From: Candidatus Pacearchaeota archaeon
GTDB lineage: Archaea > Nanobdellota > Nanobdellia > Pacearchaeales > GW2011-AR1
NCBI GenBank assembly: GCA_016188895.1
Contig: JACPGZ010000041.1
Coordinates: 1 to 42,400 of the forward strand
Length of the DNA stretch: 42,400 nt
Reading direction: 5' to 3'
Numbering within the stretch: the stretch's first letter is position 1; each line of letters starts with the position of its first letter. Shown piece by piece: positions 1-18,854 of the stretch. Made by a program: the position numbers and the translations under genes. The notes under the pieces were generated by a model. The model did no database searches. It worked only from the letters and a program-made list of their open reading frames with translations, and was not told where the DNA came from.

Positions 1-249
1 CCTTACCTCCCAGAATCCAAGTATGACAAAGAAAAAGATACAACTGGCGGAAAAAAGGGATGCGAAACAATACTGCGTTTTTTAAAGCAGGCGAAAGCCC
101 ATTTAAACAAAGATGGAAGAATTTTCATTGTTTTCAGCTCACTGACAAATTTAAAAAGCTCAATGATTAAAAACTACAAAATAAAAGAGATAGCAAGGAA
201 GAAGATATTTTTTGAGGAGCTTATTGTGTGGAAGCTTGAAAAAAACTAG
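1..249 (+). CDS. HemK2/MTQ2-family protein methyltransferase, 3' part (runs off the window start)
   Basis: Frame 1 reads PYLPESKYDKEKDTTGGKKGCETILRFLKQAKAHLNKDGRIFIVFSSLT..., i.e. the (NP)PYLP...GG..G pattern of HemK2; stop TAG at 247-249. Confidence 0.8.
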   Translation, partial: PYLPESKYDKEKDTTGGKKGCETILRFLKQAKAHLNKDGRIFIVFSSLTNLKSSMIKNYKIKEIARKKIFFEELIVWKLEKN

Positions 250-854
250 CCCATATATCTTTTCTCCCAGTCTATCACATACTCCTCTGGGATATTAATC
301 TTTTCTTTATTTGTCTTGATTTTCGGCATTTTGGCTCTAAGATAAAACCCAATTAAAATCCCGACAAATAATCCAGATAAATGTCCTAAATTTGCAATGC
401 CTGTTGGAAAAAATACGCCAAATATATCAGCAAGAGCCCATAAAAGAGAGGCTAGGAATAAAGGCATTGGCACTGAATATGCCCACACAGTCATGCTCGG
501 ACGCAAAATAACCAGAGTGCCAATAATTCCAAATATTGCTCCAGACGCCCCCAATACCTTGCTATAAAAAAATACAGAAATAATTGACGAGAAAATTCCT
601 GCTGTTAAAAACACCAACAAGAATTTTTTTGGTTTTATTTCATGCTCAAGTATAAACCCAAAAAATACCAGTCCAAACAAATTCAAAACCAAGTGGAGCA
701 GACCGCCATGAAGGAAAATCGCTGTAAAATATCTCCAGATTTCAAATGGCATGGAATTATCTATGACAAGAAAGTCTGTAAAAGCTGGAATCAACAACTG
801 CAGTAAAAATACAATGATTAAAATTGCAGCAATTTTGAATGAATAATATTTCAT
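246..854 (-). CDS. Rhomboid-family intramembrane serine protease
   Basis: WR motif, FLHGGLLHLVLN, GASG catalytic Ser motif and GHLSG His motif; multiple transmembrane segments. Confidence 0.93.
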   Translation of the reverse strand: MKYYSFKIAAILIIVFLLQLLIPAFTDFLVIDNSMPFEIWRYFTAIFLHGGLLHLVLNLFGLVFFGFILEHEIKPKKFLLVFLTAGIFSSIISVFFYSKVLGASGAIFGIIGTLVILRPSMTVWAYSVPMPLFLASLLWALADIFGVFFPTGIANLGHLSGLFVGILIGFYLRAKMPKIKTNKEKINIPEEYVIDWEKRYMG

Positions 855-964
855 GATTAGAAAGAAATATCATTACTTATATATTTTTCATATGCTTATC
901 AGAAACTGCCATTAAAATCAACTCAATGTTAATAATTTATAAAGTTAGTTATCATAAATTATTT

Positions 965-1351
965 ATGGATAAAAGAGGGATTAATAGAAAGTTAAGAGTT
1001 TTTTTAACCTTAATAGCGTGCATTGTATTTATCTTGTCTGTGTATTCGCTTACATTGGTAATAAGCAATCTTACAGGATATTCTCTTCTTCAGAATTCAA
1101 TTCAGGAATTTGCTGCATGCTTATCTGATAAAGGGGTTGTGTTTTATATTGATGATAACTGCCAGCAATGTGAAGAGCAGAAAAAACTTTTTGATAATTT
1201 TGATATGAACATTAATTACATAAATTGCAATGCAAATAAATATGCGTGTCATGTAGATAGTGTGGATTTTGTGCCAAGCTTCAAATTCAAAGAAAAATTA
1301 TACAAGGGTGTTTTTTCATTAAACCAGATTGCAGAGATAACAGGATGCTAA
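965..1351 (+). CDS. Membrane-anchored thioredoxin/glutaredoxin-like protein
   Basis: N-terminal TM helix, FAACL, CQQC (CxxC) followed by QK..F, VPSF cis-Pro-like motif, terminal TGC; probable start ATG 965 rather than 926. Confidence 0.7.
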   Translation: MDKRGINRKLRVFLTLIACIVFILSVYSLTLVISNLTGYSLLQNSIQEFAACLSDKGVVFYIDDNCQQCEEQKKLFDNFDMNINYINCNANKYACHVDSVDFVPSFKFKEKLYKGVFSLNQIAEITGC

Positions 1352-1381
1352 ACTTTTTATACTAATTATGCAGTATTATAA

Positions 1382-1437
1382 TATTATCTCAATGGCTGAG
1401 ATGATAGTGGTCGATATCTTCGCGGCATATCGACCAC
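1382..1437 (+). other. Two abutting hairpins (candidate small RNA or regulatory structure)
   Basis: TATTATCTCA/TGAGATGATA (10 bp, one G-U) directly followed by the perfect 11-bp stem GTGGTCGATAT/ATATCGACCAC. Confidence 0.55.
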
Positions 1438-1450
1438 GAACACATCACAA

Positions 1451-1492
1451 AAATTTATAAATATGTTTTATCATATAATTATAATGGAGGTG
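1451..1492 (+). promoter_or_regulatory. Archaeal TATA box and Shine-Dalgarno for the 1497 ORF
   Basis: AAATTTATAAAT at 1451-1462; GGAGGTG just before TTG 1497. Confidence 0.6.
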
Positions 1493-1496
1493 GAAA

Positions 1497-1844
1497 TTGG
1501 CAACTGAAAAAAAATTGGATGAGACAGCTTTCGGGGCTATTGTTAAAGAAATAACAGCATTCGGCGAGATGATAAGGACACATCAGGATGAGAAGCAAGC
1601 TGCAATGGATGAATTCGACAAAGAAAGAGAAAGATATCATGTTGGTAAAATATCTAAGAAAGCACTGGTGTCTTCTGTCAGAAAGGTTAATAGGGAACTT
1701 AAGAGATTAGATAATCTAATAAGAAAAGACATATCAAATCTTGTTAAGACTAATAATCAAGCTAAAGGATTTGCTCTTAAACAAGCTCCAAGGTCATTCA
1801 AAGTAGCAATGTCAGGCATAAGTTCATCATCAAGAAAGAAATAA
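1497..1844 (+). CDS. Hypothetical coiled-coil protein
   Basis: 115-aa ORF with a strong SD before a TTG start; helical, charged composition. Confidence 0.7.
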   Translation: MATEKKLDETAFGAIVKEITAFGEMIRTHQDEKQAAMDEFDKERERYHVGKISKKALVSSVRKVNRELKRLDNLIRKDISNLVKTNNQAKGFALKQAPRSFKVAMSGISSSSRKK

Positions 1845-2037
1845 TTTATTTTTATTTTTTATAATTTTTGTATACTTTCGTTTGTGTTGTTGAGATATTT
1901 AGACAAAAGAGATTGGGCATAGAGGTTCTAAGATTCTATTAAGAGCTATAACTAGGCATAAACCAAAGGGAGAAAAGAAAGAAGCAAAGATTGAAGCGTA
2001 GATATTATTTATAAACTAATTATTCCAAATTCATTAG

Positions 2038-2364
2038 ATGTACACAATCCAAAAAATAACCTACATAATTGAAGATTCCTTAAAAGAAATAATGTTTCCT
2101 TTCAAGGAAAAGATTGTTGGCGCAGACGTTGAAGCAGAAAATCCAATTGAATTAACCATAAAACTAATTTCAAGGACAGAAAAAGAAATAATAGCGGAGT
2201 TGACTCCAAACCAGAACATTTTAAGATTCTATCTAATAAGCGATGATAACTCAAAAGTAAAATTATTTATTGAAAGAAGCAAAGACAAAAAAATAAAGCG
2301 CCAGTATTTGCAGTACCTTTCAAATGAAATTTTAATAACTTTAATTCTAACCTTTCATCCCTAA
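2038..2364 (+). CDS. Hypothetical protein
   Basis: 108-aa ORF preceded by TTTATAAA at ~2008-2015. Confidence 0.55.
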   Translation: MYTIQKITYIIEDSLKEIMFPFKEKIVGADVEAENPIELTIKLISRTEKEIIAELTPNQNILRFYLISDDNSKVKLFIERSKDKKIKRQYLQYLSNEILITLILTFHP

Positions 2365-2369
2365 CTTGA

Positions 2370-2455
2370 AAAATCACTTCACAATTATCTGATTTAACAG
2401 ATTCTCTCCAATTTTCCCATCTTTCTTTGTGTTTGTACGGATCTCTTTTTTCCAT
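2370..2455 (-). pseudogene. Probable N-terminal remnant of a second tyrosine integrase
   Basis: MEKRDPYKHKERWENWRESVKS resembles the N-terminus I recall from DPANN integrases (unverified). It starts 79 bp beyond the att repeat, in the same geometry as the intact integrase relative to tRNA-Asp. The 3' limit is approximate. Confidence 0.45.
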
Positions 2456-2533
2456 GAGGCTACAAAACAAGTTATTGTTATAAACAACTTGTATATTTCT
2501 TGTAGTCCCATCAAATTAGACATTAAGTCAATA

Positions 2534-2547
2534 CGCCCGCACCGGGA
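2534..2547. repeat. Attachment-site direct repeat (distal copy of the tRNA-Asp 3' end)
   Basis: CGCCCGCACCGGGA, identical to 18695-18708. Confidence 0.88.
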
Positions 2548-2587
2548 CAAGTCCGGTTTTGTTCGCAACGAGGGGCGCCGGGGAGAG

Positions 2588-3019
2588 CTACAAAGATTTT
2601 CCTCCAATAATAACCGCCTTCGATACTTCAGCTGTCTCTATTATTACATCGCAATGCCTTGGCCTGCATTCCCAATACACACTATCGAGAAAGACAATGA
2701 TCTTGCTTGCCTCAGTATCCCGATAAGTCTCCTCTGGAATCCTATTGATTAATGCCTCTCCAATAACGACGGAGCCACCTTCATTCAATGCATTGCAATC
2801 TACAAGTCTTTCCAGATTTTCAAACAAACTGAAAAAACGAGGAGTTGGATCCCAGTATTCAAGGCATATGAAAGAACTATCCCTCTTGTTCAGAGTATCC
2901 GCCAGTTTCATGCGGTTTGTGATCTGTTGAATCTGGGGCTTGTATAAATTCACAAGAGCATAATCGCAATCTCCATTGTATTCAGAATTGCTTGAGTAGG
3001 TTCTGAGTATAAGATTCAT
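2588..3019 (-). CDS. Hypothetical mobile-element protein
   Basis: ORF with probable start MNLILRTYSSN at 3019, divergent from ardC. Confidence 0.6.
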   Translation of the reverse strand: MNLILRTYSSNSEYNGDCDYALVNLYKPQIQQITNRMKLADTLNKRDSSFICLEYWDPTPRFFSLFENLERLVDCNALNEGGSVVIGEALINRIPEETYRDTEASKIIVFLDSVYWECRPRHCDVIIETAEVSKAVIIGGKSL

Positions 3020-3129
3020 AAATAGGAAAAAACTTACGCAATTTAAATAATTTCTACCGAAATGCACAAGATAATGAATAAATACCAAATCGGTTCAATC
3101 TTTAATAATTCCTCGCCCTTTTTCCATTC

Positions 3130-3689
3130 ATGCGCAATGTTTATCAAATTATCACAGACAGAATTATTTCAAAACTTGAAGAAGGAACAGTTCCATGGCA
3201 TAGACCTTGGGGAGTGCGAGGCATTCCGAGAAGTCTGGTTTCTGGCAAAGAATATCGTGGAATTAACTCTTTTGTTTTGAGTTCAGCAGGATATGAAGCT
3301 CTTTATTGGCTTAGTTACAAGCAAGCAAAAGAAAGAAGAGGCTTTGTTAAGAAAGGCCAGCAAGGATATCCATGCGTTTACTGGAATTGGTTGGAAATGA
3401 AAGATGAAGAGACAAATGAAATTAAAAAAGTACCTTTTCTCAGATACTACACAGTCTTTAATGTTGAGCAGTGTGAAAATATAGAATATCCAAAGGGCGA
3501 TGGACTTGAATTTTTGTTTGATCCAATTGAGCACTGCGAAAGGATAGTTGGGGAAATGCCAAATCCACCATCAATCAGGCAAGGTGGAAGCAGGGCTCGT
3601 TACATTCCGATCAAAGACACAATAGAGATGCCAAGGCCTGAGAGCTTTGAAACCTCAGAGTCTTACTACAGCGTTCTATTTCACGAGCT
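3130..3689 (+). pseudogene. ardC: ArdC-family antirestriction/ssDNA-binding protein, N-terminal part (split by inversion)
   Basis: VYQIITDRII..LEEG..PW.RPW, Y.GIN, W.SYKQA, LRYYTVFNVEQ, YYSVLFHEL; homology stops in the middle of the HExxH motif. Confidence 0.9.
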
Positions 3690-4327
3690 GGCCGGAGATC
3701 TTGTGCGCTCACTGAAACATTGTCCAGGATGAGCCGCGAGCGAGGAGCTGCATCGTAGTAGAATATCAAGTCGGTCTTCCAAATCCCATTAGGACTGACG
3801 TTCGACACAGCAATTCTGTATGGAAGTAGGGGATCTGGGAAGTAAAAGCAGGAGGGAATGTCGCATGCCATTGCAGACCGAACGTAGATTGGGAACTCTC
3901 CTGTTCTCTTCGGTCTTACGCGCAGTTTCAATGTGTTTGTCTTATTGGGCGACCAAGAGCTATCAGCAAGTTCAGATAGTAAGTAAATAGCGCTCATCCT
4001 GACGCATTTGTTATTGTGTATAGTTGAGTATTTTGGATAAATCGTAAGTTTGGCAGATCCCGACGAACTTCCGTTATTAGCAACAAGACCCCCATCACTC
4101 GAATCGGTGAATGAAGGAAATGAAATTGAAATCCCGCCGTCTGGAGACGTGAGGGTGCCACTATTTAGGCAATTTACTTCGACATCTGCCCAATCTCCGA
4201 GCGTGATTTGATTTGGATGAGAAATGCTGAGTAGCTTAGGAAGTGGACACCCCTGGGCATTCAAGCGAGGGGAAAAGAACAGCCCAACAATCGCGGACAG
4301 TAGAACCGATTCTATGATACTCTTCAT
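3690..4327 (-). pseudogene. Secreted beta-rich protein, N-terminal part (its dockerin C-terminus lies at 5161-5440)
   Basis: Signal-peptide-like N-terminus and an Ig-like beta pattern; joins the dockerin domain in frame when the inversion is reversed. Confidence 0.75.
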
Positions 4328-4653
4328 GGGAATACCTCAACCTTGAAAGAAATGTTTCTTTCGCTTTCTCGTTGGCCCCAGCGTAATCTGTCATATCGAA
4401 ATCCTCCAAAGGGATTCTGAAATTCCCCTTTGTCTTCTCGTGCGGCCTTCAAGGCATTGACAACTATCTCAAGGCATTTCTCTGATTCGTTTGTCTGAAG
4501 TCTCTTGGCAGCCAGAATCACTTGGTCCTCGTATTCAGGTGGTAGAACGAATGAAATAATAATTGGGCTTTGCATTATCAACTCCATATCAACATCTTCT
4601 TTCATTTTCGGCCTGTTGAAGCGGAAGCTTGAGGAACCTTTGTCCATTGACAT
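4324..4653 (-). CDS. Hypothetical protein
   Basis: ORF whose stop overlaps the ATG at 4327; true start uncertain. Confidence 0.5.
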   Translation of the reverse strand: MSMDKGSSSFRFNRPKMKEDVDMELIMQSPIIISFVLPPEYEDQVILAAKRLQTNESEKCLEIVVNALKAAREDKGEFQNPFGGFRYDRLRWGQRESERNISFKVEVFP

Positions 4654-4674
4654 TCCGAGAATAAATTGAATTCA

Positions 4675-4869
4675 TCACGGCACCCTCCTCCCAACCTTCC
4701 ACTTGTCATACCCATTTGAAGCTGTGAAATACTCCTTCATGCACTCTTCATTGCAGAAATGCATTGCGCTGTCTAATGGAACAAACCCGCTTGTCCCTAC
4801 AATCCCCTCTTCCACTTCCAAAATATTCAAGCCTTCATCAAGCCTCTTCTGACACATTGAGCATTTCAT
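4675..4869 (-). CDS. Small Cys-rich zinc-binding protein
   Basis: CSMC ... HFCNEEC; ATG overlaps the ardC stop. Confidence 0.65.
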   Translation of the reverse strand: MKCSMCQKRLDEGLNILEVEEGIVGTSGFVPLDSAMHFCNEECMKEYFTASNGYDKWKVGRRVP

Positions 4870-5160
4870 TCTTCCAAAATCTCCTCAAGCTTCTTTCCAA
4901 GAATGTAATCTGATGCTTTTTGAGCCTGGGCCGCAGACTGAATTACAAAGCGATTGTCATTCTTTAATCGAAAAAGCCAGCCCGCAATATAAGAAGCTGA
5001 ATTGTCAATCACCCTGTTCTCTATACCAGTGTGACCACATAGATAAGCAGATCCCATCTCTGCAATCAATTCCTCTTTGCTGTAGGTATTTGATCCAAAG
5101 ACAATTGGCTCTGTAATTCCAGAGCGAGCGAGCCTTTTCTCATGCCCTGTGCTATGGGTT
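4866..5160 (-). pseudogene. ardC: ArdC C-terminal zincin-like part (inverted)
   Basis: THSTGHEKRLAR...FGS..YSKEELIAEMGSAYLC...SASYIAGWL..LKND...SAAQAQKASDYI. Confidence 0.9.
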
Positions 5161-5440
5161 AGTCTTCCGGCGGGCAGATTCTAATGGAGATGGCTCCGTC
5201 GATATCTCTGATGCAGTCAACACTCTGACCTTCCTATTCTCTGGAGAAGGCTCCAATTCCTGCCCCGATGCCTCCGAAACGAACGATGATGGTCAAATTG
5301 ATATTTCAGATCCAATAACAACTTTAGAATTTCTCTTCTTGGGAGGACAAGAACCACCCGCTCCAGGTCCGATGAATTGTGGAGTTGACTTGACGGAGGA
5401 TGGGTTGGGGGAGTGTATATATGATAAGGGGGAGTGTTAA
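5161..5440 (+). pseudogene. Dockerin-like (double EF-hand-type) C-terminal domain without its own start codon
   Basis: Reads FRRADSNGDGSVDISDAVNTLTFLF...CPDASETNDDGQIDISDPITTLEFLFLGGQEPPAPGPMNCGVD...EC*; absent from the ORF track. Confidence 0.85.
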
Positions 5441-5502
5441 CGCACTCTACTGCATTACTCTTCATTTATATTCACAGCTTTACTGTAGCTCCTGAGCTCT
5501 AA

Positions 5503-6135
5503 TTATTTTACAGAAGGCGATATTGCAAGTTGGGAATAGCATAGGCTCCTCTCCTCCTGGTCCCAGGTGATTCTATCGCAAATGGAGATGTTGCTTTGGG
5601 TTTCTGCTATACTTGTATAGCAGTCAGCAGCCTCACCGCCCCAATCTTTAATCGAGATTTCATCGCAGAGGCTCACATTCCCCGTGACTTTAGCATAAAT
5701 TGCTAGGCACCGAACTCGACGCTCTCTGTCTCTAGGGAGGGAATAGCATCCTTGGAAGCCGAGTTGAGTTACGTATTCACAAAAGAATTGCCAGGAGACT
5801 GTCTCGCCAGCCTGCTCATCGCCCTGTTCAGGACCTTTGGATTCTGAGATCGCTGAGCCCGTAATTCGAGTACATATATCGGGGCGTTCCAACAATGCCG
5901 CCATGTACACATAGCAACGAAACTGGACAGGGGTAGTTTGGATCCTTGTGCAAATTGTTACATCTCGCTGATCAATAGCTAGGTTCAAGAGGCACACTTC
6001 TTTAGCTTTGGTATTCTTTTTGTCCAGGCAATGGTCATAGGGTTCTGGCCTGCTCTGGAAAAACAGGTAGAATACCATGCCAACTAGTGCGAAGACTATG
6101 AGCATACTCAAAATTCCTATTATCCTCTTTTTCAT
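5503..6135 (-). CDS. Membrane-anchored Cys-rich repeat protein
   Basis: Probable start MKKRIIG at 6135, N-terminal TM helix, repeated C...A....[DN]...C..I units. Confidence 0.75.
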   Translation of the reverse strand: MKKRIIGILSMLIVFALVGMVFYLFFQSRPEPYDHCLDKKNTKAKEVCLLNLAIDQRDVTICTRIQTTPVQFRCYVYMAALLERPDICTRITGSAISESKGPEQGDEQAGETVSWQFFCEYVTQLGFQGCYSLPRDRERRVRCLAIYAKVTGNVSLCDEISIKDWGGEAADCYTSIAETQSNISICDRITWDQEERSLCYSQLAISPSVK

Positions 6136-6577
6136 TAACCATAGAAAAGCACTTGCGCTATATAAATCTTTTCCAAATTCCCGCCCAGACCAAATCAGTC
6201 CAAAGTATATATACTTGCTCTGCGTATTTTCTTTACCAATTGGTAACAAAACTAAGGGAGGAAAATATCTGGCTATGAATAACGAATGGAGCTTAACCCT
6301 TGAAAAGACTACCAAAAAGATAAGAAAAAGTAAAAAGATGAATTGGAGAACTTGAAAGAGAAGATAGTAAAGTTATAAAGGGTTCCAAAAAAGGCAACAA
6401 AGGAGAAAGGATTTCTGGCAAAAAGGGAAGAAAAGAAGTTGAAGAAGCAAGAAAGAGAGCACAAAAGATAGAAATGGCAATAAAAGGTTGATTTCCTACT
6501 ATATTAACAAATAATACTTATATCAAAAAGCCTTAGAAAACGAAGGATTTAAATACTATTAATAGCTATGAATATAT

Positions 6578-6823
6578 ATGAATACTACAAGTATCACTTT
6601 GGATAGAAATGTAAAGAAAGGTCTAGACAGATTGAAAGCTCATAAGCGAGAGTCATATAACGAGGTCATTGCTCGAATTCTCGCCGGAAAAGTGTCACGA
6701 ATTGATAGCGAGAGCTTGCTGGAGACCATCGAGATACTCTCTGATCCAGAGGCAATGAGAAGTCTTGCTACCAGCATAGAGCAATTGAAAGGCGGGAAGC
6801 TCTATTCTATAGATGAGGTCTGA
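6578..6823 (+). CDS. Type II antitoxin (RHH-like N-terminus, RelB/YefM-like C-terminus)
   Basis: TSITLD....LD.LK...RESYNEVI.R; LETIEILSDPE; coupled to the RelE-like gene. Confidence 0.8.
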   Translation: MNTTSITLDRNVKKGLDRLKAHKRESYNEVIARILAGKVSRIDSESLLETIEILSDPEAMRSLATSIEQLKGGKLYSIDEV

Positions 6824-7080
6824 TGGAGAGGGTAATCATGTTCACAGAGGAAGGGAAGAAGACACTCCAGAGTATGCATATTGATAATAAGCGAAAGATC
6901 AAGAGGGCATTGAAGGAGTTGGCCAAAGACTCGAGAATCGGGAAGGCTTTGACAGGAAGATTGCAGGGCTTCTATAGCTTCCGCGTTGGAAAGTATAGAG
7001 CGATATACTCAACTGAAGGAGAGGCTATTATCGTTCACGTGGTGGGACATCGGCGCGAGGTTTATGGGGTTGCGGCTTGA
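6823..7080 (+). CDS. RelE/ParE-family toxin
   Basis: GKALTGRLQGFYSFRVGKYRAIY...VGHRREVY. Confidence 0.9.
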   Translation: MERVIMFTEEGKKTLQSMHIDNKRKIKRALKELAKDSRIGKALTGRLQGFYSFRVGKYRAIYSTEGEAIIVHVVGHRREVYGVAA

Positions 7081-7192
7081 AGGGGGTTGGGGTGATGCGG
7101 GGCGGCTCGGCAGAGGGATGGATCCCGCCCCGGTTCCCCCTTGACCAGAGTTATGAAAAAGAAGAAAATCTCTGAAGCTGAGAAAAATATCC

Positions 7193-7453
7193 ATGAAGGT
7201 GCGGCTTGAGCAGGGAGACCATGGTACATGGCTCCTCATAGCAGAGGACGGCCGCGATCTCCTGATTCAAACTGACTGGGACTACCCAGGACTCGCTTCC
7301 CATCTCGGCTGGGTTCCTTGCACTCAATGCGATCAAACAGATGGAACGATTGACTGCGCTCACCGCACGGTTTCTGAAATGATCTCAGAGGCGAGACGTT
7401 TCCTGGATGAAAAGGAGGGCGAAAGTTTCGAAGATCCTGGCTACTTTGATTGA
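7193..7453 (+). CDS. Hypothetical protein
   Basis: 86-aa ORF with CTQC and TDGTIDCAH; no family recognised. Confidence 0.55.
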   Translation: MKVRLEQGDHGTWLLIAEDGRDLLIQTDWDYPGLASHLGWVPCTQCDQTDGTIDCAHRTVSEMISEARRFLDEKEGESFEDPGYFD

Positions 7454-7517
7454 GGAAACATTGGATTGGGGTTGAGTGGAGGTTGCGAGGGTGATAGTTG
7501 TGGCGGAAAAACATTAA

Positions 7518-7919
7518 ATGGCCTCAAGTTACCATATCGGTGATACTAAGAGACTCCATTTGTTATTTGACGATAGATATAAAGGGTTTAAAGCGACTTG
7601 GAAAGATTGTAATTCTTTCCTTATCCAGGAAGGGCCAAGCGATGGTGTAGTTCTGTTATACAATGAAGCATCATATTCACCAAAAGCGGTTGTTAAGTTC
7701 CTAAGTTCTCAAGGTCGAACAATTAGTATTGGTTGTGGAAGTGTAGATTGGGATGGGAAATACTGGACATTCGCTGAGCCCTCCGAAAAGGTTCTATGTG
7801 AAAAGCTTATCACTCGGCTTGTAAACGACGACCAGAAAATGCTTCGGTATTATGGGGATTTCACGCTGAGAACAAAGGCGGAAGTTTTCCTACTCATTTC
7901 AAGCTACTTGTTAAGATAA
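7518..7919 (+). CDS. Hypothetical protein, first gene of a four-gene operon
   Basis: 133-aa ORF ending 2 bp before the peptidase gene. Confidence 0.6.
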   Translation: MASSYHIGDTKRLHLLFDDRYKGFKATWKDCNSFLIQEGPSDGVVLLYNEASYSPKAVVKFLSSQGRTISIGCGSVDWDGKYWTFAEPSEKVLCEKLITRLVNDDQKMLRYYGDFTLRTKAEVFLLISSYLLR

Positions 7920-7921
7920 TT

Positions 7922-8734
7922 ATGAGCCGGCGCTGGAAATCTCATATCGTTAGAGCCTTTTGGAAAAATGTCGGCGGGAGGAGCCCAACCCACGCTGTCA
8001 ACATTGTGTGCTGTGCCTTACGACACCGTCTATGTGTCAAAGAACCTCCATTTCAGATTCCACCAAAGTATTCCTATGCTGAGTTGCTAGGAATTCCAGT
8101 TATTGAAAATGATATTCGTTGCGATGGTATATTGACAAGTTTTGGAGATCAATTCATAATTCAAGTAAAAAGGTCTTCGCCTGATAGACAGAACTTTACG
8201 GTGTGTCATGAGCTTGGGCATGCTGAAATCTTCAGAAGGGCACTTGTACTACACAAGGCTTCTCGTGAAGTCAGAGAGGAGGAAGTATTAGCGAACGAGT
8301 TTGCCAAAGAGTTACTAATGCCAAAAGATATTTTCTGTGCAATAGCTCTCTCATGTCAGCCTAGTTTACAATCCCTGTTTTTTCTATCTCATACCTTTGG
8401 CACTTCGTTAGAAGCCTCCGCGAGACGTCTTATTGAACTTAATATTTGGAATTTCGCTTTTGTTTTGTGGAATATTAATACTGCATTTGACGGTGGTATC
8501 CTATTAGAAATTGAGCGGGCAGTAAAGCCTCAAAACTTTAAACCTGCACTAAAGACCAAACAGACTTTGAAGGTGAATAAAGAAGGTGGGTTGGGTAAAC
8601 ACTTGCTGGAAACATTGAATATTCCCAGCATTGTCCGCTATTCAGACGAGAGTCGAGTAAGAGAATCGATAAGGCGTTCTTCTGTCCAGCGCCAGGGTCT
8701 TACTCTTCTTTTTCCTCAGTCAGCAACTTTATAA
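7922..8734 (+). CDS. ImmA/IrrE-family zinc metallopeptidase
   Basis: RQNFTVCHELGH (HExxH), EEVLANEFAKELLMP, FGTSLEASARR. Confidence 0.9.
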   Translation: MSRRWKSHIVRAFWKNVGGRSPTHAVNIVCCALRHRLCVKEPPFQIPPKYSYAELLGIPVIENDIRCDGILTSFGDQFIIQVKRSSPDRQNFTVCHELGHAEIFRRALVLHKASREVREEEVLANEFAKELLMPKDIFCAIALSCQPSLQSLFFLSHTFGTSLEASARRLIELNIWNFAFVLWNINTAFDGGILLEIERAVKPQNFKPALKTKQTLKVNKEGGLGKHLLETLNIPSIVRYSDESRVRESIRRSSVQRQGLTLLFPQSATL

Positions 8735-8757
8735 ATTTGGTTGGTTGTCGTTTGACT

Positions 8758-10557
8758 ATGAGCCAAATATTAATAGTAAATGTCGGTGGTCAGTACTGCC
8801 ACCTAATAGCTCGCCGAATTCGTGAGCTGGGTGTACAGAGTCGAATCTGTACCTCAGAAACGCTCGAAAATGAACTTGCGGAGGTAAAGGGAATAATCAT
8901 CTCTGGTGGTCCCAGTAGTGTGTATGACCCAGATTCTCCAGTAGTGCCGCCCTCTGTTTTTAGCGCCAAAATCCCCATACTAGGCATTTGTTATGGACAT
9001 CAGTTATTAGCTCACAATTTGGGTGGAACGGTGCGACCAGGAAAGCTTCGAGAGTATGGGGAAACCTCACTCACGGTCATAGACAATGATTCCATACTTT
9101 GTGGAATTCGTAAAAATGAAATTGTGTGGATGAGTCATGGTGATGAGGTGGTGAAAGTGCCACCAGGTTTCCAGGTAATAGCTCGCACTGAAAATTGCCC
9201 CATCGCGGCTATGTCAAACACGGATCAAAAGTATTTTGGCCTGCAGTTTCATCCTGAAGTTTCCCACACTCTCTGTGGATCAATTGTGATTAAGAACTTT
9301 GTATTTAACATTTGTAAGTGCTCTAAAGACTGGGACATGGGGGGTGAGATCTTAAGATTAAAGGCAGATATTCAGAAACAGGTTGGTCAGCGAAAAGTGT
9401 TGTTTTTCGTTAGTGGAGGTGTGGACTCAACTGTAGCATTCTCATTGTGCGCTGAAGCTCTTGGACCGGAGCGGGTACTCGGAGTGTTCGTAGACACCGG
9501 CTTCATGAGAAAGGATGAGCGAGAGGAAATTGAGGCAACTTTTTTGGCCAAAGGATGGCACAATATTCATTATATTGATGCGTCGAAAACATTTTTAGAA
9601 GCTGTCAGTGGAATTGCCGACCCTGAAAAAAAACGGAAGCGCATTGGCAACAGCTTTCTCGACGTTCAGCGGAGTGTTATGAAACAACTAGGCTTGGGAT
9701 CAAGTGACTGGATGTTGGGACAAGGAACCATCTACCCAGATACAATTGAATCCGGAAAGGCAAAATTTGCATCCTTGATTAAAACCCACCACAACCGTGT
9801 TGAGCTTATTGATAATTTGATTCGCCAAGGTTTAGTTTTAGAACCACTTAAATCTCTCTATAAAGATGAAGTGCGAGACATTGGAAGAGCTCTTGGCTTA
9901 CCTGGGGACATGGTGAATAAACATCCATTTCCCGGGCCAGGGTTGTCTGTGCGCTGCTTGTGTTCTGAAGAAGAGACTCGTCCAAAGTCTGATCATGCTC
10001 TCTCGAGCATAGTAAGCCGTTATGGTCTAAAGGCTTGGCGATTACCACTATTTACTGTAGGTGTTCAGGGAGATTATCGAAGTTATCGGGAACTTGTACT
10101 CTTGTCTGAAGGTGTAGAACTACCAGTCTATAGTATGTTGGCCTCCCAGATAATTAATAAGGTCGCTCAAACTAATCGTGTTGTATTCATCCTTGCAAGA
10201 AAAAGCCCTCATTTAAATATTGAGAATGCAATTATTCGTCCCAATCGGTTCTTGACTATGGATAGACTTGACCTACTGCGTGAGGCAGATGATTTATGCA
10301 GGAAGTTTCTTGAAGCTGCTGATCTCTCAGGAGAAGTGTGGCAGTTTCCAGTAATTCTTCTGCCCCTTTCTTTGGAATCAGGCGAGACGATAGCCTTACG
10401 TCCCATATTATCCTCCGATGCCATGACAGCCAAGCATGCCGAACTACCCATGGATTTCCTTGCAGAACTTTCAAGGCGATTGTGCGAGATTAAAGGTATA
10501 GATCTTGTTCTTTACGATGTTACTAATAAACCGCCAGCAACGATAGAATGGGAATAA
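8758..10557 (+). CDS. guaA: Glutamine-hydrolysing GMP synthase (long form)
   Basis: GATase GICYGHQ and QFHPE, PP-loop SGGVDS, QGTIYPD.IES, IKTHHN, HPFPGPGL, KPPATIEWE; probable ATG at 8758. Confidence 0.95.
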   Translation: MSQILIVNVGGQYCHLIARRIRELGVQSRICTSETLENELAEVKGIIISGGPSSVYDPDSPVVPPSVFSAKIPILGICYGHQLLAHNLGGTVRPGKLREYGETSLTVIDNDSILCGIRKNEIVWMSHGDEVVKVPPGFQVIARTENCPIAAMSNTDQKYFGLQFHPEVSHTLCGSIVIKNFVFNICKCSKDWDMGGEILRLKADIQKQVGQRKVLFFVSGGVDSTVAFSLCAEALGPERVLGVFVDTGFMRKDEREEIEATFLAKGWHNIHYIDASKTFLEAVSGIADPEKKRKRIGNSFLDVQRSVMKQLGLGSSDWMLGQGTIYPDTIESGKAKFASLIKTHHNRVELIDNLIRQGLVLEPLKSLYKDEVRDIGRALGLPGDMVNKHPFPGPGLSVRCLCSEEETRPKSDHALSSIVSRYGLKAWRLPLFTVGVQGDYRSYRELVLLSEGVELPVYSMLASQIINKVAQTNRVVFILARKSPHLNIENAIIRPNRFLTMDRLDLLREADDLCRKFLEAADLSGEVWQFPVILLPLSLESGETIALRPILSSDAMTAKHAELPMDFLAELSRRLCEIKGIDLVLYDVTNKPPATIEWE

Positions 10558-10563
10558 TGGTTA

Positions 10564-10830
10564 ATGGACGAAACGAAATTGTCAGAGCTCAAATTGACAG
10601 TTGACAAGATTTGTAAAAGCTATAACGATACTATCAGTTATGAGTTATTGGAATCTTCAGCTTCAGTAGAATTGCATGGCGGCGTTCCTCATTTTTCATT
10701 GGAGGAAGATATAATTATAAATCTTCTTTTTCCATCAGGAGTTTCTATCGAAGAGTCTCAGTTAAGAGAGTTATCTCAAAAGCTATCTTCTCTTGAGAAT
10801 GTTACTCGTGTTACGCTTCAATTCGTATAA
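10564..10830 (+). CDS. Small acidic protein, possibly related to the GMP synthase C-terminal domain
   Basis: LRELSQKLSSLENVTRVTLQF resembles LAELSRRLCEIKGIDLVLYDV in the upstream GuaA. Confidence 0.55.
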   Translation: MDETKLSELKLTVDKICKSYNDTISYELLESSASVELHGGVPHFSLEEDIIINLLFPSGVSIEESQLRELSQKLSSLENVTRVTLQFV

Positions 10831-10935
10831 TTATAATTCAGCAAAATTAATTATTTTTTTGATATTTAATCCAGTTCAACCTTTTAAAACTGCACAGCAT
10901 GTGTCATGACCAAAAACGGGAGATATATCAGCTGT

Positions 10936-11220
10936 TCAGAAGGATGGCCCTGCCGGCGAGACTCCGTGCTTGTCAGCAATTTCCTTGATAGTCATGCTCT
11001 TATACATCTCACGGAGCTCTTCAGCAGCGATGTTGAACTTGCCTCTCTTTCCCCTTCTTCGCTTCCTAACAGCGCGGGCTCTTGCCGGAGGAGATACACG
11101 AGCACCTGTGAATTGCTGCAAAGCTCTGACCATATCTGAAAGCCTTCTGCAGGCCTCCATGTTGATCAGCCCGAAGTCAACCAAGGTCTGAAGAGCTTCT
11201 ACATCATTCTGCTCTGCCAT
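10936..11220 (-). pseudogene. HTH protein, apparently truncated in the recognition helix
   Basis: EELREMYKSMTIKEIADKHGVSPA followed by an abrupt GPSF*. Confidence 0.5.
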
Positions 11221-11457
11221 GACAGAGTCCCCTGGTAACATTTACCAAACACTTCTCTTCTAAAAACTCAGATACTATAATCCTGACTTCTATTTTCGCA
11301 ATAGAAAAACTGAAAATATTTTAATAGTTAATCGGCTGGGAAGGGTTTCAGGAAGAGAGGAGTAGATATTGATCAGATAGAAAGATGGTAAATCCGCAAA
11401 ATACAATAAATAACAGAAGCCCCTGGATAATATTCAAAGGACATATTCTTGACTTTA

Positions 11458-11760
11458 TCAAGCACTGACCTGCTGTTGAGGAGGCGTAGTTCTGGGAGCT
11501 GGCATCAGTTCTGTAAAGAGAAAGCTACCTTCAGAGCTGTCACTGAATCTGACATCTGCTACCTGATTCTTCCGGAGGACTTTGATAATAGTTCCAGTCT
11601 TCTCTTCGCCCTTGACATTCACCCGAACCCAATCTCCCATTCTCCACTTGATGGTCTTTTCTTTTCTCCCCCGCCGGGGCTTTTCTTGGGGCGCTTCTTC
11701 TGTAGGAGTTTCCTTGGCTTCATGGGGCTCAGCTTCTTTGGTTTTCCTTCGCCAATTATA
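11458..11760 (-). pseudogene. Fragment with a low-complexity linker and a KOW/SH3-like domain
   Basis: Open frame YNWRRKTKEAEP...MGDWVRVNVKGEEKTGTIIKV...DVRF with no good upstream start. Confidence 0.4.
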
Positions 11761-12024
11761 TCTTTTGCAATATCATAATATTCTATATTTTTTGTCAATT
11801 TATAACGAACATTGCATGTCACCTGAGTTCGCCGCATCGTGTTGTTCGCCCAGCTGAACCAGTTAAATACGATTGCTAGAGAAGAGTCAATACTCTCAAA
11901 ATTGCTGGTTTAGATATTGAAAGTAATTTAGCATCATTAATAAAATCACAAAATATTTAAGGATGTCCAACTTGGTTTTAGTTATGAGAAGAAAATAATA
12001 TGTCCCCGTGTAACCGGAGCGGAA

Positions 12025-12693
12025 TTGTGCCAGATACTTAATTCTCGTAGCTATTGCTACCTTTTACGAAGCGCCGCGAATTTTGTTTCAGCTACTGGGT
12101 ACGAAGTAGCGTTTGAAGTAGCAAGAGATTTCAAAGGGAAATATTATTTAAGTGATCTAGCAACTGGTACTTCTGATCACGTATATATTTATAAAACGCA
12201 GCAAATCGCAGAGGATACATTCCGTGAAGGTAACATACCAGACGCTATTGTATTGATTAATCTTCACTTCCATCCCGGTGCTCACCCTTATCCAAAGCCA
12301 TCAGCGCAAGATTTACTCCACATCGAACATAGAACTCTTCTTGAATATCACCTCGATGATGTTAGACCGATTTGCGGCATATCTACTGTAGACAAATGTG
12401 ATATGGTTACAACACTATTCTTTCAGAAACGTCATGCGAAATTACGTCACCATTTTCCTGGAAGAAGTAAAGAACAATATCCATTACAAAGAGAGATCTA
12501 TGAATTATCGCAAATACCTCTTAGCTCCATGCAAGACACAGTCTCTGCTCTACGGGACTCTGGATTACTAGAAGCGCTCTGTGTAGAATTCAGGACCAAA
12601 GGTAGGACAAAATACTTCACAAACGTCCAGGAGAGCGATTTAGAGCGTTTCTCCTACGTGCCACGCCTCTCGATAAGAAGACATAACACATAA
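12025..12693 (+). CDS. JAB/MPN(JAMM)-like domain protein
   Basis: N-terminal Glu (GYEVAF) and LHFHPGAHPYPKPSAQD, matching HxH-x-S-x2-D; start uncertain. Confidence 0.65.
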   Translation: MCQILNSRSYCYLLRSAANFVSATGYEVAFEVARDFKGKYYLSDLATGTSDHVYIYKTQQIAEDTFREGNIPDAIVLINLHFHPGAHPYPKPSAQDLLHIEHRTLLEYHLDDVRPICGISTVDKCDMVTTLFFQKRHAKLRHHFPGRSKEQYPLQREIYELSQIPLSSMQDTVSALRDSGLLEALCVEFRTKGRTKYFTNVQESDLERFSYVPRLSIRRHNT

Positions 12694-12799
12694 ATATTTC
12701 AGCAGTTACAAAAATCATTAAAATTTCTATGAAAATTTTTCCCCAAATCCGGTCCTAGAATGATGAAGCTCTTAAAAGAGCTATTTTTGGATTATCGTA

Positions 12800-13279
12800 A
12801 TGAAACTATCGCTACTAAGTGATTCAGAATTGATTAAAAGGTATAGGCGAACTGGCGATTGCAATTGTATCGAAGAATTGTACAAGAGATACAAGAAGCA
12901 GCATTATAATTATTTGCTCTTTACTCTAAAGGACGAGACAGCTGCCGAGGATATTCTTTCAGACGCATGGGGAAAAATATTAAGGTACCTTGCGAGGGAG
13001 GATTATCCTATTAAAAACTTTATGTCATGGTCTTTTTCTGTAATCAGGACCAAAGCTATAGATTTCTTTTCACGCCCACAATACGAAAGCTTAGACAATC
13101 CGAAATTTCAGTTTCTTCCCTCTAAGCAGCACTCGCCCGCCAAAGAGGTTGAAAACTGTGAGAGGAACACATCTATCAATGAAGCCGTCTCACAGTTACT
13201 CGAGCGTCTGCATCTTCCATACTCTTCTCCATCCTTTCAAAGAATTCATCCAAATCATCAAAAGATTCTACTCCCATGA
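12800..13279 (+). pseudogene. Bacterial ECF sigma-70 factor, truncated before region 4
   Basis: SDSELI...EELYKRY...AEDILSDAWGK...FMSWSFSVIRTKAIDFF; similarity ends at AVSQL (~13200). Confidence 0.8.
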
Positions 13280-13348
13280 AGTCAAGAGTGAAAACTCCTT
13301 TTTATACTTTTAACTGATTTGCAGGATAATTAGAATTGCGAGTCTTTC

Positions 13349-13717
13349 TTATTCTACAAATTCGACAATTGGGAGCTCTTCAAACTCTTTGTCACCTGTT
13401 AGAAATTTCATTCCATGACGCTTCGCATAAATATAGCCAATGCAATCAGCATATGAAAAATCTTGCTTTTTATTTTCCTTCCTGAATTTAATTGCCTCCT
13501 TAAGTGTGTCGTCATCAATCTCAGCCACCGCGTCCTTATATTCTTTAAAAACCTCGTCTGCTTGCTTCTCTCCAAGTTTATTCAGAACCACCCAATATAT
13601 CTCCGCTAAATTAAAGATTGTTATTGTTGCAGATTCGTCCTCATATTTTGCGTATCTTTGATTACCTTCAATGAGCTCAATTATTGAATATGTGTCGAAG
13701 AAGTAGCTTACTGCCAT
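13349..13717 (-). CDS. vapC: VapC/PIN-domain toxin
   Basis: FFDTYSIIE, NLAE, SYADCIGY, LTGDKEF. Confidence 0.92.
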   Translation of the reverse strand: MAVSYFFDTYSIIELIEGNQRYAKYEDESATITIFNLAEIYWVVLNKLGEKQADEVFKEYKDAVAEIDDDTLKEAIKFRKENKKQDFSYADCIGYIYAKRHGMKFLTGDKEFEELPIVEFVE

Positions 13718-13953
13718 TTTTCCCTATCACGATCACTTTCCCAACCTTTGCGTGCTTCATCCTTCAGCCTTTGCGTTGAAAACTTCTTTAGTTCAGGAAA
13801 TTTTCCAAATAGCACTCCTGCCTTTGGCTTTGATTTCATGATGATGATCAGTATTTCTTCATCTTCATGAATATTTTGATGTTCGGCAATCTCTTTTGGA
13901 ATTACAACTGCTATTGAGTTTCCCCACTTTCTTGTTATTGTTTTGACTTCCAT
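13708..13953 (-). CDS. AbrB/MazE-family antitoxin
   Basis: RKWGNSIAVVIPKEI; overlaps vapC. Confidence 0.9.
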   Translation of the reverse strand: MEVKTITRKWGNSIAVVIPKEIAEHQNIHEDEEILIIIMKSKPKAGVLFGKFPELKKFSTQRLKDEARKGWESDRDREKWQ

Positions 13954-14002
13954 GTATATAATGAGACGAAGTGATATTTAAACCTTTAGGTGATCATTTA
14001 AA

Positions 14003-14311
14003 TCACAATCCTAGTTCCTTCCTGATATTCTCCAGATACTTCTCCAAATCTTTGTAACCCTTTTTTCTATCCAAAAGACAGACCATGACTAACTTCCTCC
14101 CGAGAATAGCATATATCATTCTTGTTGCACTTCTTCCGATAGAAAGCCTCACACTAAAAACTCTTGAATATTTCCTTGAATGGACTTTTTTGTAACGAAA
14201 GGGATTTTGTTTAATCAACCGGATTTTATCGCTGATAATTCTTTTTGTTTTTTCATCAAGCCCTGATACTTGCTCACTGAAAAACTTCAAAGCAATAATT
14301 TTAAACTCCAT
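14003..14311 (-). CDS. RelE-like toxin
   Basis: IRLIKQNPFRYK...FSVRL...RMIY...LLDRKKGY; overlaps the upstream RHH gene. Confidence 0.75.
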   Translation of the reverse strand: MEFKIIALKFFSEQVSGLDEKTKRIISDKIRLIKQNPFRYKKVHSRKYSRVFSVRLSIGRSATRMIYAILGRKLVMVCLLDRKKGYKDLEKYLENIRKELGL

Positions 14312-14561
14312 TCAAAATCCCGTTGAGCTCTTCTTCAGAAACAACTTCTCCTCTTTTAATTGACAGCTCAACCAATTCGTCTATTAGCTCAATTTCTTTT
14401 TGGTTAAAACTTTCGTCATATTCCCCTTCTTCAAAAACCTTTTCCCTGATGCTCTCTGAAGCAAGTTCTTGGACATTTTTATAGCCATGGCTTTTGACAT
14501 AACGCTCTGCTGCTTCAATAAGATTCTTTGGCAATTTCAAATTAATCTGCTTTGTTTCCAT
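14301..14561 (-). CDS. RHH/CopG-type antitoxin
   Basis: METKQINLKLPKNL...GYKNVQELASESIREK; probable start 14561. Confidence 0.75.
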   Translation of the reverse strand: METKQINLKLPKNLIEAAERYVKSHGYKNVQELASESIREKVFEEGEYDESFNQKEIELIDELVELSIKRGEVVSEEELNGILNGV

Positions 14562-14816
14562 GATATCTATAGATAGCTTTAGATATTTAAATCTTTCGGT
14601 GAACAACTCATTTGCATTTCCATATCTGAGGTTCCATTTGGGGAAGTTTCACGTCTCAGAGTTGGCTTTAAAAATCACCCTATTGAATTATTCTTGAAGT
14701 CAGGTAAAATGATGGGTTTAGAAGATACCTTGTGAACAAGAGATTGGTTATAATGTAATGGTAAAGTCATAAGCAGTAAGAAGGACAAAGGACAACCATT
14801 AATTAGGAGCGATGAA

Positions 14817-15175
14817 ATGAAAAAAAGGATGATTGTCAAAATAACTATCATTTATGCTCTTGTAATTTGCACAACAGGCTGCCTCGGTGGCAAGTACACT
14901 TACAAGCCTCCTGACAGCTTACCTAAGATTAACAATTTCATTGAAATTGAGGAGCCAAAAGATTTAGTGTGGCAGAGACTTGTTGCTGGTTTAGGAAGAG
15001 AATATTTCGTAATTAATAATCTCGATAAAGAGTCTGGCTTTATCAATGTAAGTTATGGTGAAGATCCTGAACTTTTTATTGACTGCGGTGAGATATCGTC
15101 ATGGGTCAGTAACCTTAGAGGAAGGAGAGATTATGTGTTCCCTGCGTCTAGAGCAGCACAACAATTCGAGCAGAA
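14817..15175 (+). pseudogene. Bacterial-type lipoprotein, C-terminally truncated
   Basis: Signal peptide with TTGC lipobox-like site and INNLDKESGFINVSY; the sequence switches to subtilase coding near 15170-15176 (approximate). Confidence 0.55.
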
Positions 15176-16060
15176 GGCAAGGGTTGTGTCATATTATTTG
15201 CAATGACAAACGAAAAAATTGATAATTTCGGAGGTCCAGGAGGAGTAATTGATATTTCCTCTCATAAAGATGTAATAGCCATTGGAAGATCTACAAACCT
15301 TGATGTTTGGGGTCATAGTGGTTTTGGGAAAGGAATGGCTTTTTTATCGCCGACAAATGCAGCCAAAGGAACTCCACTTGATGGATGTAATCCAGGAGAT
15401 CTGGCAGGTACTTTAGATATTACAACGACTGATCTCATGGGTGGTTCAGGATATAATAGCGGGCTTGGTGACCCTTGCTTCTGTAATGCACAGATTAATG
15501 AAAACAACAATGCTAATTATACAAATTGTTTTGGAGGAACATCTTCTGCTACACCGCTTTCTGCAGGAGTTGCAGCCCTAGTTCTTTCAATAAGCCCGAA
15601 TTTATCGGCAAAAGAAGTAAGAAAAATACTGATAGAGACAGCTGATAAAATTGATCGTGATCAGGCTAACTATCAACAAGATGATGTAGGACTTGAATAT
15701 AGTGCAACTCACGGATATGGAAGAATTAATGCTAAAAAGGCTGTTGAAAAAGCAATTGGGATTGCACCGGCATTGGTAGTGGCAAGAAAAGACGATGTAA
15801 AAAAGCAAGCTTTTAAGGAATCTGATATAGGGAGAAAAGGAGAATCAAAGGTTGCTGAAGTATTATTTGGAGTTCCAGTTGAGCAGCAGAAAATAACAAC
15901 AAAAAGACGTCAATATGACGTATTCGTCGCCTCAAATTTAAGGGCAGTAATTATAGATGAAAAAATTGGCAAAAATAAAATCCTTGAAAGATTAGGAAGC
16001 GAGTTAAAAAGTATTTCAGATAAGCCATGGCTTTCTGGTTTGGAGGTTAACCCCAGTTGA
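15176..16060 (+). pseudogene. S8 subtilisin-like peptidase, C-terminal part only
   Basis: GKGCVILFAM upstream of the ATG, FGGTSSATPLSAGVAAL catalytic Ser motif and GYGRINA; the Asp and His catalytic motifs are absent. Confidence 0.85.
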
Positions 16061-16118
16061 GAAAAGGTAAAAGATAATCATAGAATAAAAAGGTGAAAGG
16101 TTCAAAATGGAGTAAAAA

Positions 16119-16637: not shown

Positions 16638-16750
16638 GAGAGAAAGAAACCATTACAGATATGAAAGTAACCTATCTCTAAGAATTAGTATTGTGTTTAT
16701 AATTAAACGATTAATTATAATTGTAATCTTTTCAGATAAGGAAGTATGTA

Positions 16751-17140: not shown

Positions 17141-17467
17141 TAGATTCTCTATAATGAAATTTATATCTTGGCTTTCATCCAAAAAAAAGCAATAGTTGAT
17201 AAATTCTTTTTCCATTTCCAAGATCTCCACTACCACAGCCCTCACGCTCGCTGCGTCCGTTTCGTTCTGTGGGACATGCGTTGAAAAGCATAAAAATCAC
17301 TTGTTAATTCCAACAACTTTCCCTTCTTTAACCAGCACCGCCTCAATCCTCCTCTCGATCTCCTCTATTCTCTCAATTATCTCCTGAAGAGCTTTCTTAA
17401 CCTCTCGGCGTTTCATGATGCTTCTGCGGAATGAAATAATAAATAGTTTGAACTGAATTACTTTGCT

Positions 17468-18631
17468 TTATACTTGCTGCATAACCTGCTCTATTCTCTT
17501 TTTAAGTTCACCAAGGTCTTTTCTTGTTTGGTCGAGATCAAAGCGCAGAGACTGATTATCCTCTCCTTGTCGTCGTAGTCTATCAACTAATAGGCGCTCG
17601 CGTTGCTTTGCCTGTTGGAGCTCCCCTTCTATCCTCTGCAGATTACTATCAAAGAGTTTTTTCTTTGGTTTTCTACGATCAATCGCTAGGTAGGATACGT
17701 ACGCGTCAATCTCCTTGGAGCTGGGTTTGTGTCCGAGTCGGAAGTTCACTTCGTCTGTTGTCCAGCCAGACCTGAGGAGATGGCAGGCCATGCCAGATCT
17801 GAGATCCTTCCAGCTCACTCGAGTGTTTGTGGGGACGCAGCTTGCTCCTGTCTTCCTCGCCACGCTGTGCATTAGCTTCAAGGCTTGTCTGTAGCCGAAG
17901 CGGAAAACACAATCGTTTTCATTCAGTCCTGGTAAAACGATGTCAGCGTACTTCGCTGTCTCTGGATAGAGGGTTGGTTCGCTTCGCGACTGCCTGCTGC
18001 GTTTCAGCTTCTCCCGAGGAAGGTTTACCAAGTATTCAACTTCCCTAGTGTCTTCATTGACTTGACGGGTGAAGTCCTTCTTGGTGAGCTGCAGAAGGGT
18101 GTTGATGTTCTCTCCGACATCCCAGGCAAGCCAGAAAAGGAGCAAATGGGATGGCTTTGAAAGAACAGATACCATCTTTAGGAAAGTTTCCTCGCTAACG
18201 AAACTCACTTCCTTCCGAGGATTACTGCTGAACTCAATCACTTCCCTAGCGAGCTCATCCTTACCAGCAAGTTTGAAGGGCTTGCTCTTGAAGACTTTGT
18301 TGTAATAACTGCTTCTATCAGCGAATCTTTCGCCCTTTTTATTTCTGATTCGTCCTTCCTCGAGGTCGTCATACACTTTCTTTATATCTTCTTTTGTCAA
18401 ATCTTTCCATGGCTTATTCTTGAACCAAGAATTTACATTGCGGAACCGTTGGACGTAGTAAATCAAAGTCTTGTAGCAAGGTTCATCCAAAGCCGGAAGT
18501 CCATTCTGCCTCTTGAGCTTGTGCTCTTCGAATTGGAAAAATTGCCGGAAGACATCTCGATTCTCTCTACAAATCATCTTATCACACAAAAGCTCGTTCT
18601 TGGCCTTTTCATATCGTTCTTTAAATCCCAT
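17468..18631 (-). CDS. Tyrosine recombinase/integrase
   Basis: KDLRSG, RLGH and the downstream Tyr (DAYVSY), plus a C-terminal coiled coil; next to tRNA-Asp; probable start MGFKERY at 18631. Confidence 0.88.
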   Translation of the reverse strand: MGFKERYEKAKNELLCDKMICRENRDVFRQFFQFEEHKLKRQNGLPALDEPCYKTLIYYVQRFRNVNSWFKNKPWKDLTKEDIKKVYDDLEEGRIRNKKGERFADRSSYYNKVFKSKPFKLAGKDELAREVIEFSSNPRKEVSFVSEETFLKMVSVLSKPSHLLLFWLAWDVGENINTLLQLTKKDFTRQVNEDTREVEYLVNLPREKLKRSRQSRSEPTLYPETAKYADIVLPGLNENDCVFRFGYRQALKLMHSVARKTGASCVPTNTRVSWKDLRSGMACHLLRSGWTTDEVNFRLGHKPSSKEIDAYVSYLAIDRRKPKKKLFDSNLQRIEGELQQAKQRERLLVDRLRRQGEDNQSLRFDLDQTRKDLGELKKRIEQVMQQV

Positions 18632-18694
18632 GCAATTATTAAGGTGCCCAACTATATAAATCTTGCGCCCTTTTATGTGAACAAAAGTGGTCAG

Positions 18695-18838
18695 CGCCCG
18701 CACCGGGATTCGAACCCGGGTTGCATCCGATCTATGCTATTTCTAGCTATCATAGTTTTTCTGATTCCTAGAACTCTTTTTTCTAAAAAGAGTTGTAGCA
18801 TGACAGGGATGAGTGCTAGGCCACTACACTATGCGAGC
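18695..18838 (-). tRNA. tRNA-Asp(GTC) with a 71-nt intron (18730-18800) at canonical 37/38
   Basis: Acceptor GCTCGCA/TGCGGGC, anticodon stem CATCC/GGATG, GGTTCGAATCC T-arm, complete bulge-helix-bulge (CTGT/ATAG helix, CA|T and AT|C bulges). Confidence 0.95.
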
Positions 18839-18854
18839 ACATTATTATTCTTAT

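Follow-up and report, generated by a model that had tools for sequence, protein, structure and literature searches.

An inversion of 1471 bp has been confirmed as real, and not an artefact, in an island of the genome of a Candidatus Pacearchaeota archaeon. The inversion was probably a one-off, unprogrammed illegitimate event in dispensable cargo that was followed by drift to near fixation. The inverted block is very probably a fixed one-off lesion, stray site-specific enzymes being counted among its possible makers. The event is of an ordinary, already known kind.

The window (the whole stretch of 42,400 nucleotides that was analysed) is contig C2 of a 970-kb draft genome of 62 contigs that is 86.6% complete (about 13% is unassembled). 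The genes of S6e and RNase P p30 and the intron-containing tRNAs are its archaeal markers. The groundwater evidence consists of the separately made contigs of four public runs (X1-X4) of one study. A search of the open literature returned nothing specific to this type of island or to this lesion.

Geometry and register of the inversion

The features of the inverted region are listed below.

3130..3689, + strand: 5' part of ardC (PF08401, E 3e-31; PF18818 positions 13-53)
3688..3689, + strand: 2-bp overlap at the left junction, reading CT, from the sequence
3690..5160, no strand: inverted segment, most likely 1471 bp long (other registers allow 1463-1477 bp)
3690..4327, - strand: 5' part of the predicted secreted protein, with a signal-like N terminus and a domain of large surface proteins
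4324..4653, - strand: 109-aa ORF (orf109), whole within the inversion, with no homolog beyond itself
4675..4869, - strand: 64-aa Cys-rich ORF (orf64), whole within the inversion, its start overlapping the stop of ardC, with a weak zf-FCS match
4866..5160, - strand: 3' part of ardC (PF18818 positions 52-126, E 9e-20)
5161..5162, + strand: 2-bp overlap at the right junction, reading AG, from the sequence
5161..5440, + strand: 3' part of the secreted gene, left without its 5' part, with a dockerin-like EF-hand pair

Reversal of positions 3690-5160 (1471 bp) gives open reading frames of 284 and 305 aa, which bears out the flip that an earlier note on this DNA had claimed. Lossless flips may start at any of eight positions from 3687 to 3694, and these yield six distinct products that all keep HExxH and FRRAD (the start of the C-terminal domain). 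Three of the eight starts give one and the same product, which is that of the earlier note. Its register is the likeliest because the HELTH that it restores is the commonest motif among ArdC homologs (46/119, against 9/119 for HELAH); the exact cut is not proven by this, and the five other products fit as well.

The two junction sites have only CT in common. No dyad arms were found when the present and rebuilt sites were compared with their own complements, and repeat searches over 1-12000 and 1800-19500 returned none that joins the junctions, so the statement that long inverted repeats are lacking holds. The earlier note had also described 2-bp crossover cores as typical of serine recombinases. 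The core is weak evidence here: an overlap of at least 2 bp arose in 17% of 200,000 random blunt flips simulated within the island, and the core therefore cannot point to a serine recombinase. A 2-bp overlap should not be mistaken for a recombinase signature.

Presence of the inverted form in groundwater runs

In all four runs, contigs pass through each junction in the inverted orientation, at depths of 14, 297, 7, and 16 for the left junction and 14, 276, 7, and 16 for the right junction (X1 to X4, respectively). The contigs are unbranched and inverted in 4/4 runs, where rare variants would escape contigs. No joint to the parental form is listed in the contigs of the four runs, and neither parental join is present elsewhere in the assembly. 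In three runs, a related sequence (3075-3201) that makes up 29-37% of the local depth was assembled as its own contig; a parental form of like abundance should thus have appeared.

These data bear on the proposal that the inversion was made by assembly or amplification, which is extremely improbable. In its favour, the genome is a draft in 62 contigs whose source may be among the four runs. However, both junctions recur letter for letter in the four separately assembled runs, and the genome assembly has neither parental join elsewhere. A chimera would not fall on the same two bases in each of four libraries, and the proposal is largely refuted.

A second related element occurs in the same runs and is about 92% identical at the start of ardC. 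It apparently has 3172-3530 and 4399-4687 in common with the window and differs beyond 4399 and 4871. This co-occurring element may retain the uninverted order.

The two broken genes

ArdC consists of ArdcN and an MPTase domain (MPTase-PolyVal, PF18818) with HExxH, and these domains are split between strands. The 5' part holds the whole ArdcN ssDNA-binding domain and the metalloprotease domain as far as H-E-L, and its present ORF continues to 3732 (200 aa). The 3' part holds the second His of HExxH and the glutamate helix. Five full-length homologs follow the + strand to residue 188-189 and the - strand from residue 187-188 without a gap, which indicates that no codon is missing in ardC. Neither piece holds a stop or a frameshift. 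The claim that no base was lost therefore stands on the ardC side, where the homologs abut; in the secreted gene the frame alone is kept.

The N-terminal domain of the secreted protein has 341 homologs at E<=0.001 and a weak match to NF047707. It lacks the DQQG motif that is present in 114/148 homologs, and the C-terminal module is absent in all homologs of this domain (0/149). The rebuilt 305-aa protein may for these two reasons be divergent or already damaged.

The C-terminal module is dockerin-like. For the dockerin ending that had been described, Pfam gave only EF-hand matches below the threshold. Five further copies of the dockerin-like module are present in the genome (contigs C11, C35, C46, C49, and C51), and matches were found in 10/300 family genomes (loci L098, L019, and L234-L257). 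The right cut lies one codon ahead of this module, which ends or starts many surface proteins. No DNA site is common to the module starts among the 17 other listed copies (paralogs and relatives), and a shufflon site at the module was ruled out on this ground.

Gene order in related loci

The ardC gene is contiguous in 157/160 related loci, and the other three stop at most 53 bp from the edge of the locus. These comparisons are distant, the loci being at most about 60% identical; the best full-length ArdC homologs are about 63% identical. A homolog of orf64 occurs in seven loci. In L019 and L022 it follows immediately downstream of ardC and shares its strand, and in the other five it lies upstream of ardC on the opposite strand. 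The present layout of the window was seen in none of the seven. The inverted form is thus derived, given that related loci are contiguous and none has the present layout. The ancestral order was presumably ardC, orf64, orf109, and the secreted gene on one strand, although ardC and orf64 share a strand in only 2/7 loci.

No close uninverted copy was found when single proteins were scanned against contigs of metagenomes and genomes, and a DNA search of 60 relatives gave short matches only. The N-terminal part of the secreted protein and orf109, used as queries for a close copy, each matched only themselves. ArdC is paired with dockerin-like proteins in L098 (a Nanoarchaeota genome) and L019, and with the integrase family of this island in L099.

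The split of ardC and the secreted gene was the only opposite-strand gene split in the about 324 kb of the genome (about one third) that lies under homologs. This screen used 2265 proteins from relatives and fetched loci as queries, of which 589 matched.

A programmed, reversible on/off switch for ArdC and the surface protein had been offered as one option in the earlier note and is very unlikely. A single flip rebuilds both genes in frame from undamaged ardC pieces, and the position of the right cut, just before a widespread surface-protein module, would suit a switch. Against this, one orientation was seen in every run at up to 297x, although a variant at 29-37% was kept, and no parental joint and no recombinase-like sites were found. 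There are no inverted repeats, no invertase was found in the genome, and the module starts have no conserved DNA site. None of the 157 testable ardC loci is split, and the rebuilt surface protein is the one without DQQG.

The antirestriction side of the switch also appears doubtful by analogy with ArdC of plasmid R388, whose protease activity is described as unneeded for the host-range effect (PMC7213743); the cut in the window spares ArdcN. It is uncertain that the inverted allele is an "off" state, as ArdcN is whole and R388 ArdC works without its protease. ArdcN was matched in only 5/300 family genomes, and ardC is therefore dispensable for the lineage.

The island and its integrase

The inversion lies inside a 16.2-kb island (2534-18708) that is integrated at an intron-containing tRNA-Asp. 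The features of its boundaries are listed below.

2534..2547, + strand: distal att, a 14-bp direct repeat that copies the tRNA-Asp 3' end
17468..18631, - strand: tyrosine integrase (phrog_1, E 7e-7), adjoining the tRNA, with XerA/Cre/lambda-Int fold by modelling
18694..18838, - strand: tRNA-Asp(GTC) with a 71-nt intron (aragorn, introns allowed)

The proximal att repeat is the tRNA-Asp 3' end at 18695-18708. The 14-bp repeat has two copies in the whole genome, at 2534 and 18695, and contigs of the runs cover the distal att site. GC content is 41% in the island and 32% in the flanks. The earlier statement that the window encodes no serine recombinase is true, but the tyrosine integrase, the tRNA-Asp, and the att repeats had been overlooked.

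The island carries toxin-antitoxin pairs, an IrrE-like protease, a GMP synthase, and truncated genes, in a patchwork of bacterial-looking and archaeal-looking genes. No conjugation genes were recognised in it by Pfam, PHROG, and NCBIfam scans. The gene of an ECF sigma-70 factor (12800-13279) is truncated near 13200, before region 4: its matches stop near residue 135, far from the ends of the models, which have 160-230 positions, and at the break it adjoins a short acidic ORF encoded on the opposite strand. A second reciprocal inversion near 13200 was considered and rejected, the missing half being unseen in six-frame translations and Pfam scans, and homology of the opposite-strand ORF to a gene of L098 was not supported. 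A subtilase retains only positions 140-279 of 288, its N-terminal half being gone. At 14817-16060 a lipoprotein-like ORF runs into this half subtilase in what looks like a deletion join. A run of four genes at 7518-10830 includes a complete GMP synthase of bacterial type along with the IrrE-like M78 protease and is possibly a defence or nucleotide-modification module.

Outside the distal att, 2417-2517 is 74% identical to C7:40854-40951, which lies between another integrase and a tRNA-like end, and may be a remnant of an older island boundary. Beyond the island, an intein that carries a LAGLIDADG-like domain interrupts a gene at 22909-25356 (- strand). An ESM Atlas search gave no usable match, and a promoter scan gave no excess.

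Relatives of the integrase were found in 16/300 family genomes, and aragorn detected a tRNA in 11/19 fetched loci (L214-L232). The modelled XerA/Cre/lambda-Int fold of the integrase is confirmed. All 16 aligned integrases have G-E-N where XerA reads G-L-R and K-x-x-R in place of H-x-x-R, and the family keeps G-H and the Tyr. The canonical tetrad is R...HxxR...Y (PMC8371274). The invariant K211, R214, and R217 might, judging from the alignment, compensate for the missing first catalytic Arg.

It is decidedly unlikely that this atypical integrase joined two secondary sites of low homology and made the other mid-gene joins as well. The island contains no other recombinase; the integrase has an open reading frame, its fold is full, and its catalytic motifs are unusual. 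However, the att likeness of the junctions is at chance, and tyrosine recombinases normally require an overlap of 6-8 bp. PMC5495485 describes an archaeal integrase that inverts DNA other than att, but that integrase, IntpTN3, requires about 100 bp of homology, against 2 bp in the window. Nothing links the integrase with its atypical motifs to the inversion.

A broader joint reading is also improbable, namely that a DPANN integrase family has lost the first catalytic Arg, recombines sites that are nearly free of homology, flipped the block, and shuffles the cargo of the island, with surface-domain swaps onto dockerin-like anchors and other mid-gene joins. If the integrase reading were true, it would bring to light a tyrosine recombinase that chooses its sites loosely and has a rewired active site, and small-genome archaea would have a means to vary their surface proteins.

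Candidate enzymes and the proposed mechanism

A serine recombinase was searched for elsewhere in the genome (86.6% complete). The best match to PF00239 had E 0.04, and PF07508 had none; the former is presumably a TrmB-like regulator. A tblastn search of the genome with the serine recombinases of seven relatives gave a best E of 0.098 and no motif match. A serine recombinase exceeds the Pfam cut-off in 41/101 family genomes, so the absence of one here is weak evidence. Small serine recombinases of 170-290 aa (L258-L265) are common in the DPANN family, some of them beside ribosomal protein genes.

A stray, one-off small serine recombinase acting in trans, from the unassembled part of the genome or in an earlier host, is an unlikely source that would also leave a fixed lesion. 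Such an enzyme would cut both sites at CT with a stagger of 2 bp, rotate, and religate. Its chemistry fits a lossless reciprocal product with a matching 2-bp overlap, and the family is rich in such enzymes. Yet neither Pfam model nor tblastn revealed one in the genome, and the sites are dissimilar, without dyad arms, and overlap within chance.

IS110 (PF01548) was not found in this genome and occurs in 4/101 family genomes. The bridge recombinase IS621 has a conserved CT core, needs no target-donor similarity, and gave rare inversions between insertion sites (PMC11208160). An off-target inversion by an IS110 enzyme with a CT core is nevertheless highly improbable, although the overlap here is CT: the genome search found no IS110, and CT/AG is expected about once in eight by chance given a 2-bp overlap.

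The genome has a GyrA/ParC gene, five matches to tyrosine recombinases, and a Y1 transposase of the IS200 type. Several other candidates were rejected. Top6A of topoisomerase VI was not found in the genome, nor was Ku. For pseudo-att sites, the best att-core match near a junction was 8/14, a score that is reached at 150 places in the island. The integron-type G/TT crossover needs its motif at both sites and, by eye, has it at one. Topoisomerase VI leaves 2-nt overhangs, as worded in a title in the reference list of PMC3159449.

Illegitimate recombination by the host is the favoured source of the inversion and the least certain part of the preferred account. A single reciprocal break-and-rejoin with an overlap of 0-2 bp would have inverted the 1471-bp block and split ardC and the predicted secreted-protein gene. 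Subunit exchange by a type IIA topoisomerase, end joining, or template switching may have carried this out, possibly in an earlier host of the island. The inverted form would then have risen by drift or founder effect under slight selection on the cargo; its near fixation would follow from the dispensability of cargo that we presume to be neutral.

The chance-level overlap (17%), the lack of dyad arms, and the lack of att likeness argue for this source, as do the contiguity of 157/160 related ardC loci, the uniqueness of the opposite-strand split in the screen, the other truncated genes in the island (ECF sigma and subtilase), and the presence of a GyrA/ParC gene. Several points weigh against it. 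A site-specific recombinase also yields a clean, lossless, and reciprocal product; serine recombinases are common in the family and 13% of the genome is unassembled; and X1-X4 all come from one study, are possibly what the assembly was built from, and have contigs that drop rare variants. Type IIA topoisomerases make cuts staggered by 4 nt, and a 2-bp overlap does not follow from this by itself. Illegitimate recombination at <10 bp of homology or none is mediated by type II topoisomerases (PMC3159449). The one-off recombination that the earlier note had listed among its options is supported.

Illegitimate recombination as the best reading is of limited import and adds a further case of dispensable island DNA in which an inversion broke genes. 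A gene-breaking lesion has reached high frequency in a wild archaeal population.

Comparison with known systems

Invertons and shufflons (Hin/Gin/Cin, Rci, and intragenic ones; bioRxiv 10.1101/2023.03.11.532203) are similar to the inversion in having endpoints in coding sequence and in changing protein products. The inversion differs from them in that it has no inverted repeats, one orientation, and no invertase found in the genome. The inversions by IntpTN3 in Thermococcus (PMC5495485) also involve an archaeal host, a tRNA-targeting tyrosine integrase nearby, and non-att sites; they differ in the homology needed (about 100 bp against 2 bp), and the integrase gene in the window is intact after integration.

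ArdC of plasmid R388 (PMC7213743) has the same ArdcN and gluzincin domain with HExxH and glutamate helix, whereas the gene in the window is split inside HExxH and lies on an archaeal chromosomal island without recognised conjugation genes. The tRNA-integrated archaeal islands (PMC8371274) resemble this island in the integrase beside a tRNA, the repeat of the tRNA 3' end, and the raised GC content, whereas the integrase here has Asn at the first catalytic Arg and K-x-x-R for H-x-x-R.

The closest likeness is to the inversions by illegitimate recombination covered in PMC3159449, with which the inversion shares <10 bp of homology and the lack of dedicated sites or a cognate recombinase. It also shares with them the single orientation, dispensable genes as the ones struck, and the absence of the event from related loci. 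The differences from these inversions are nothing essential: the one in the window is lossless on the testable side, and it broke two genes at once.
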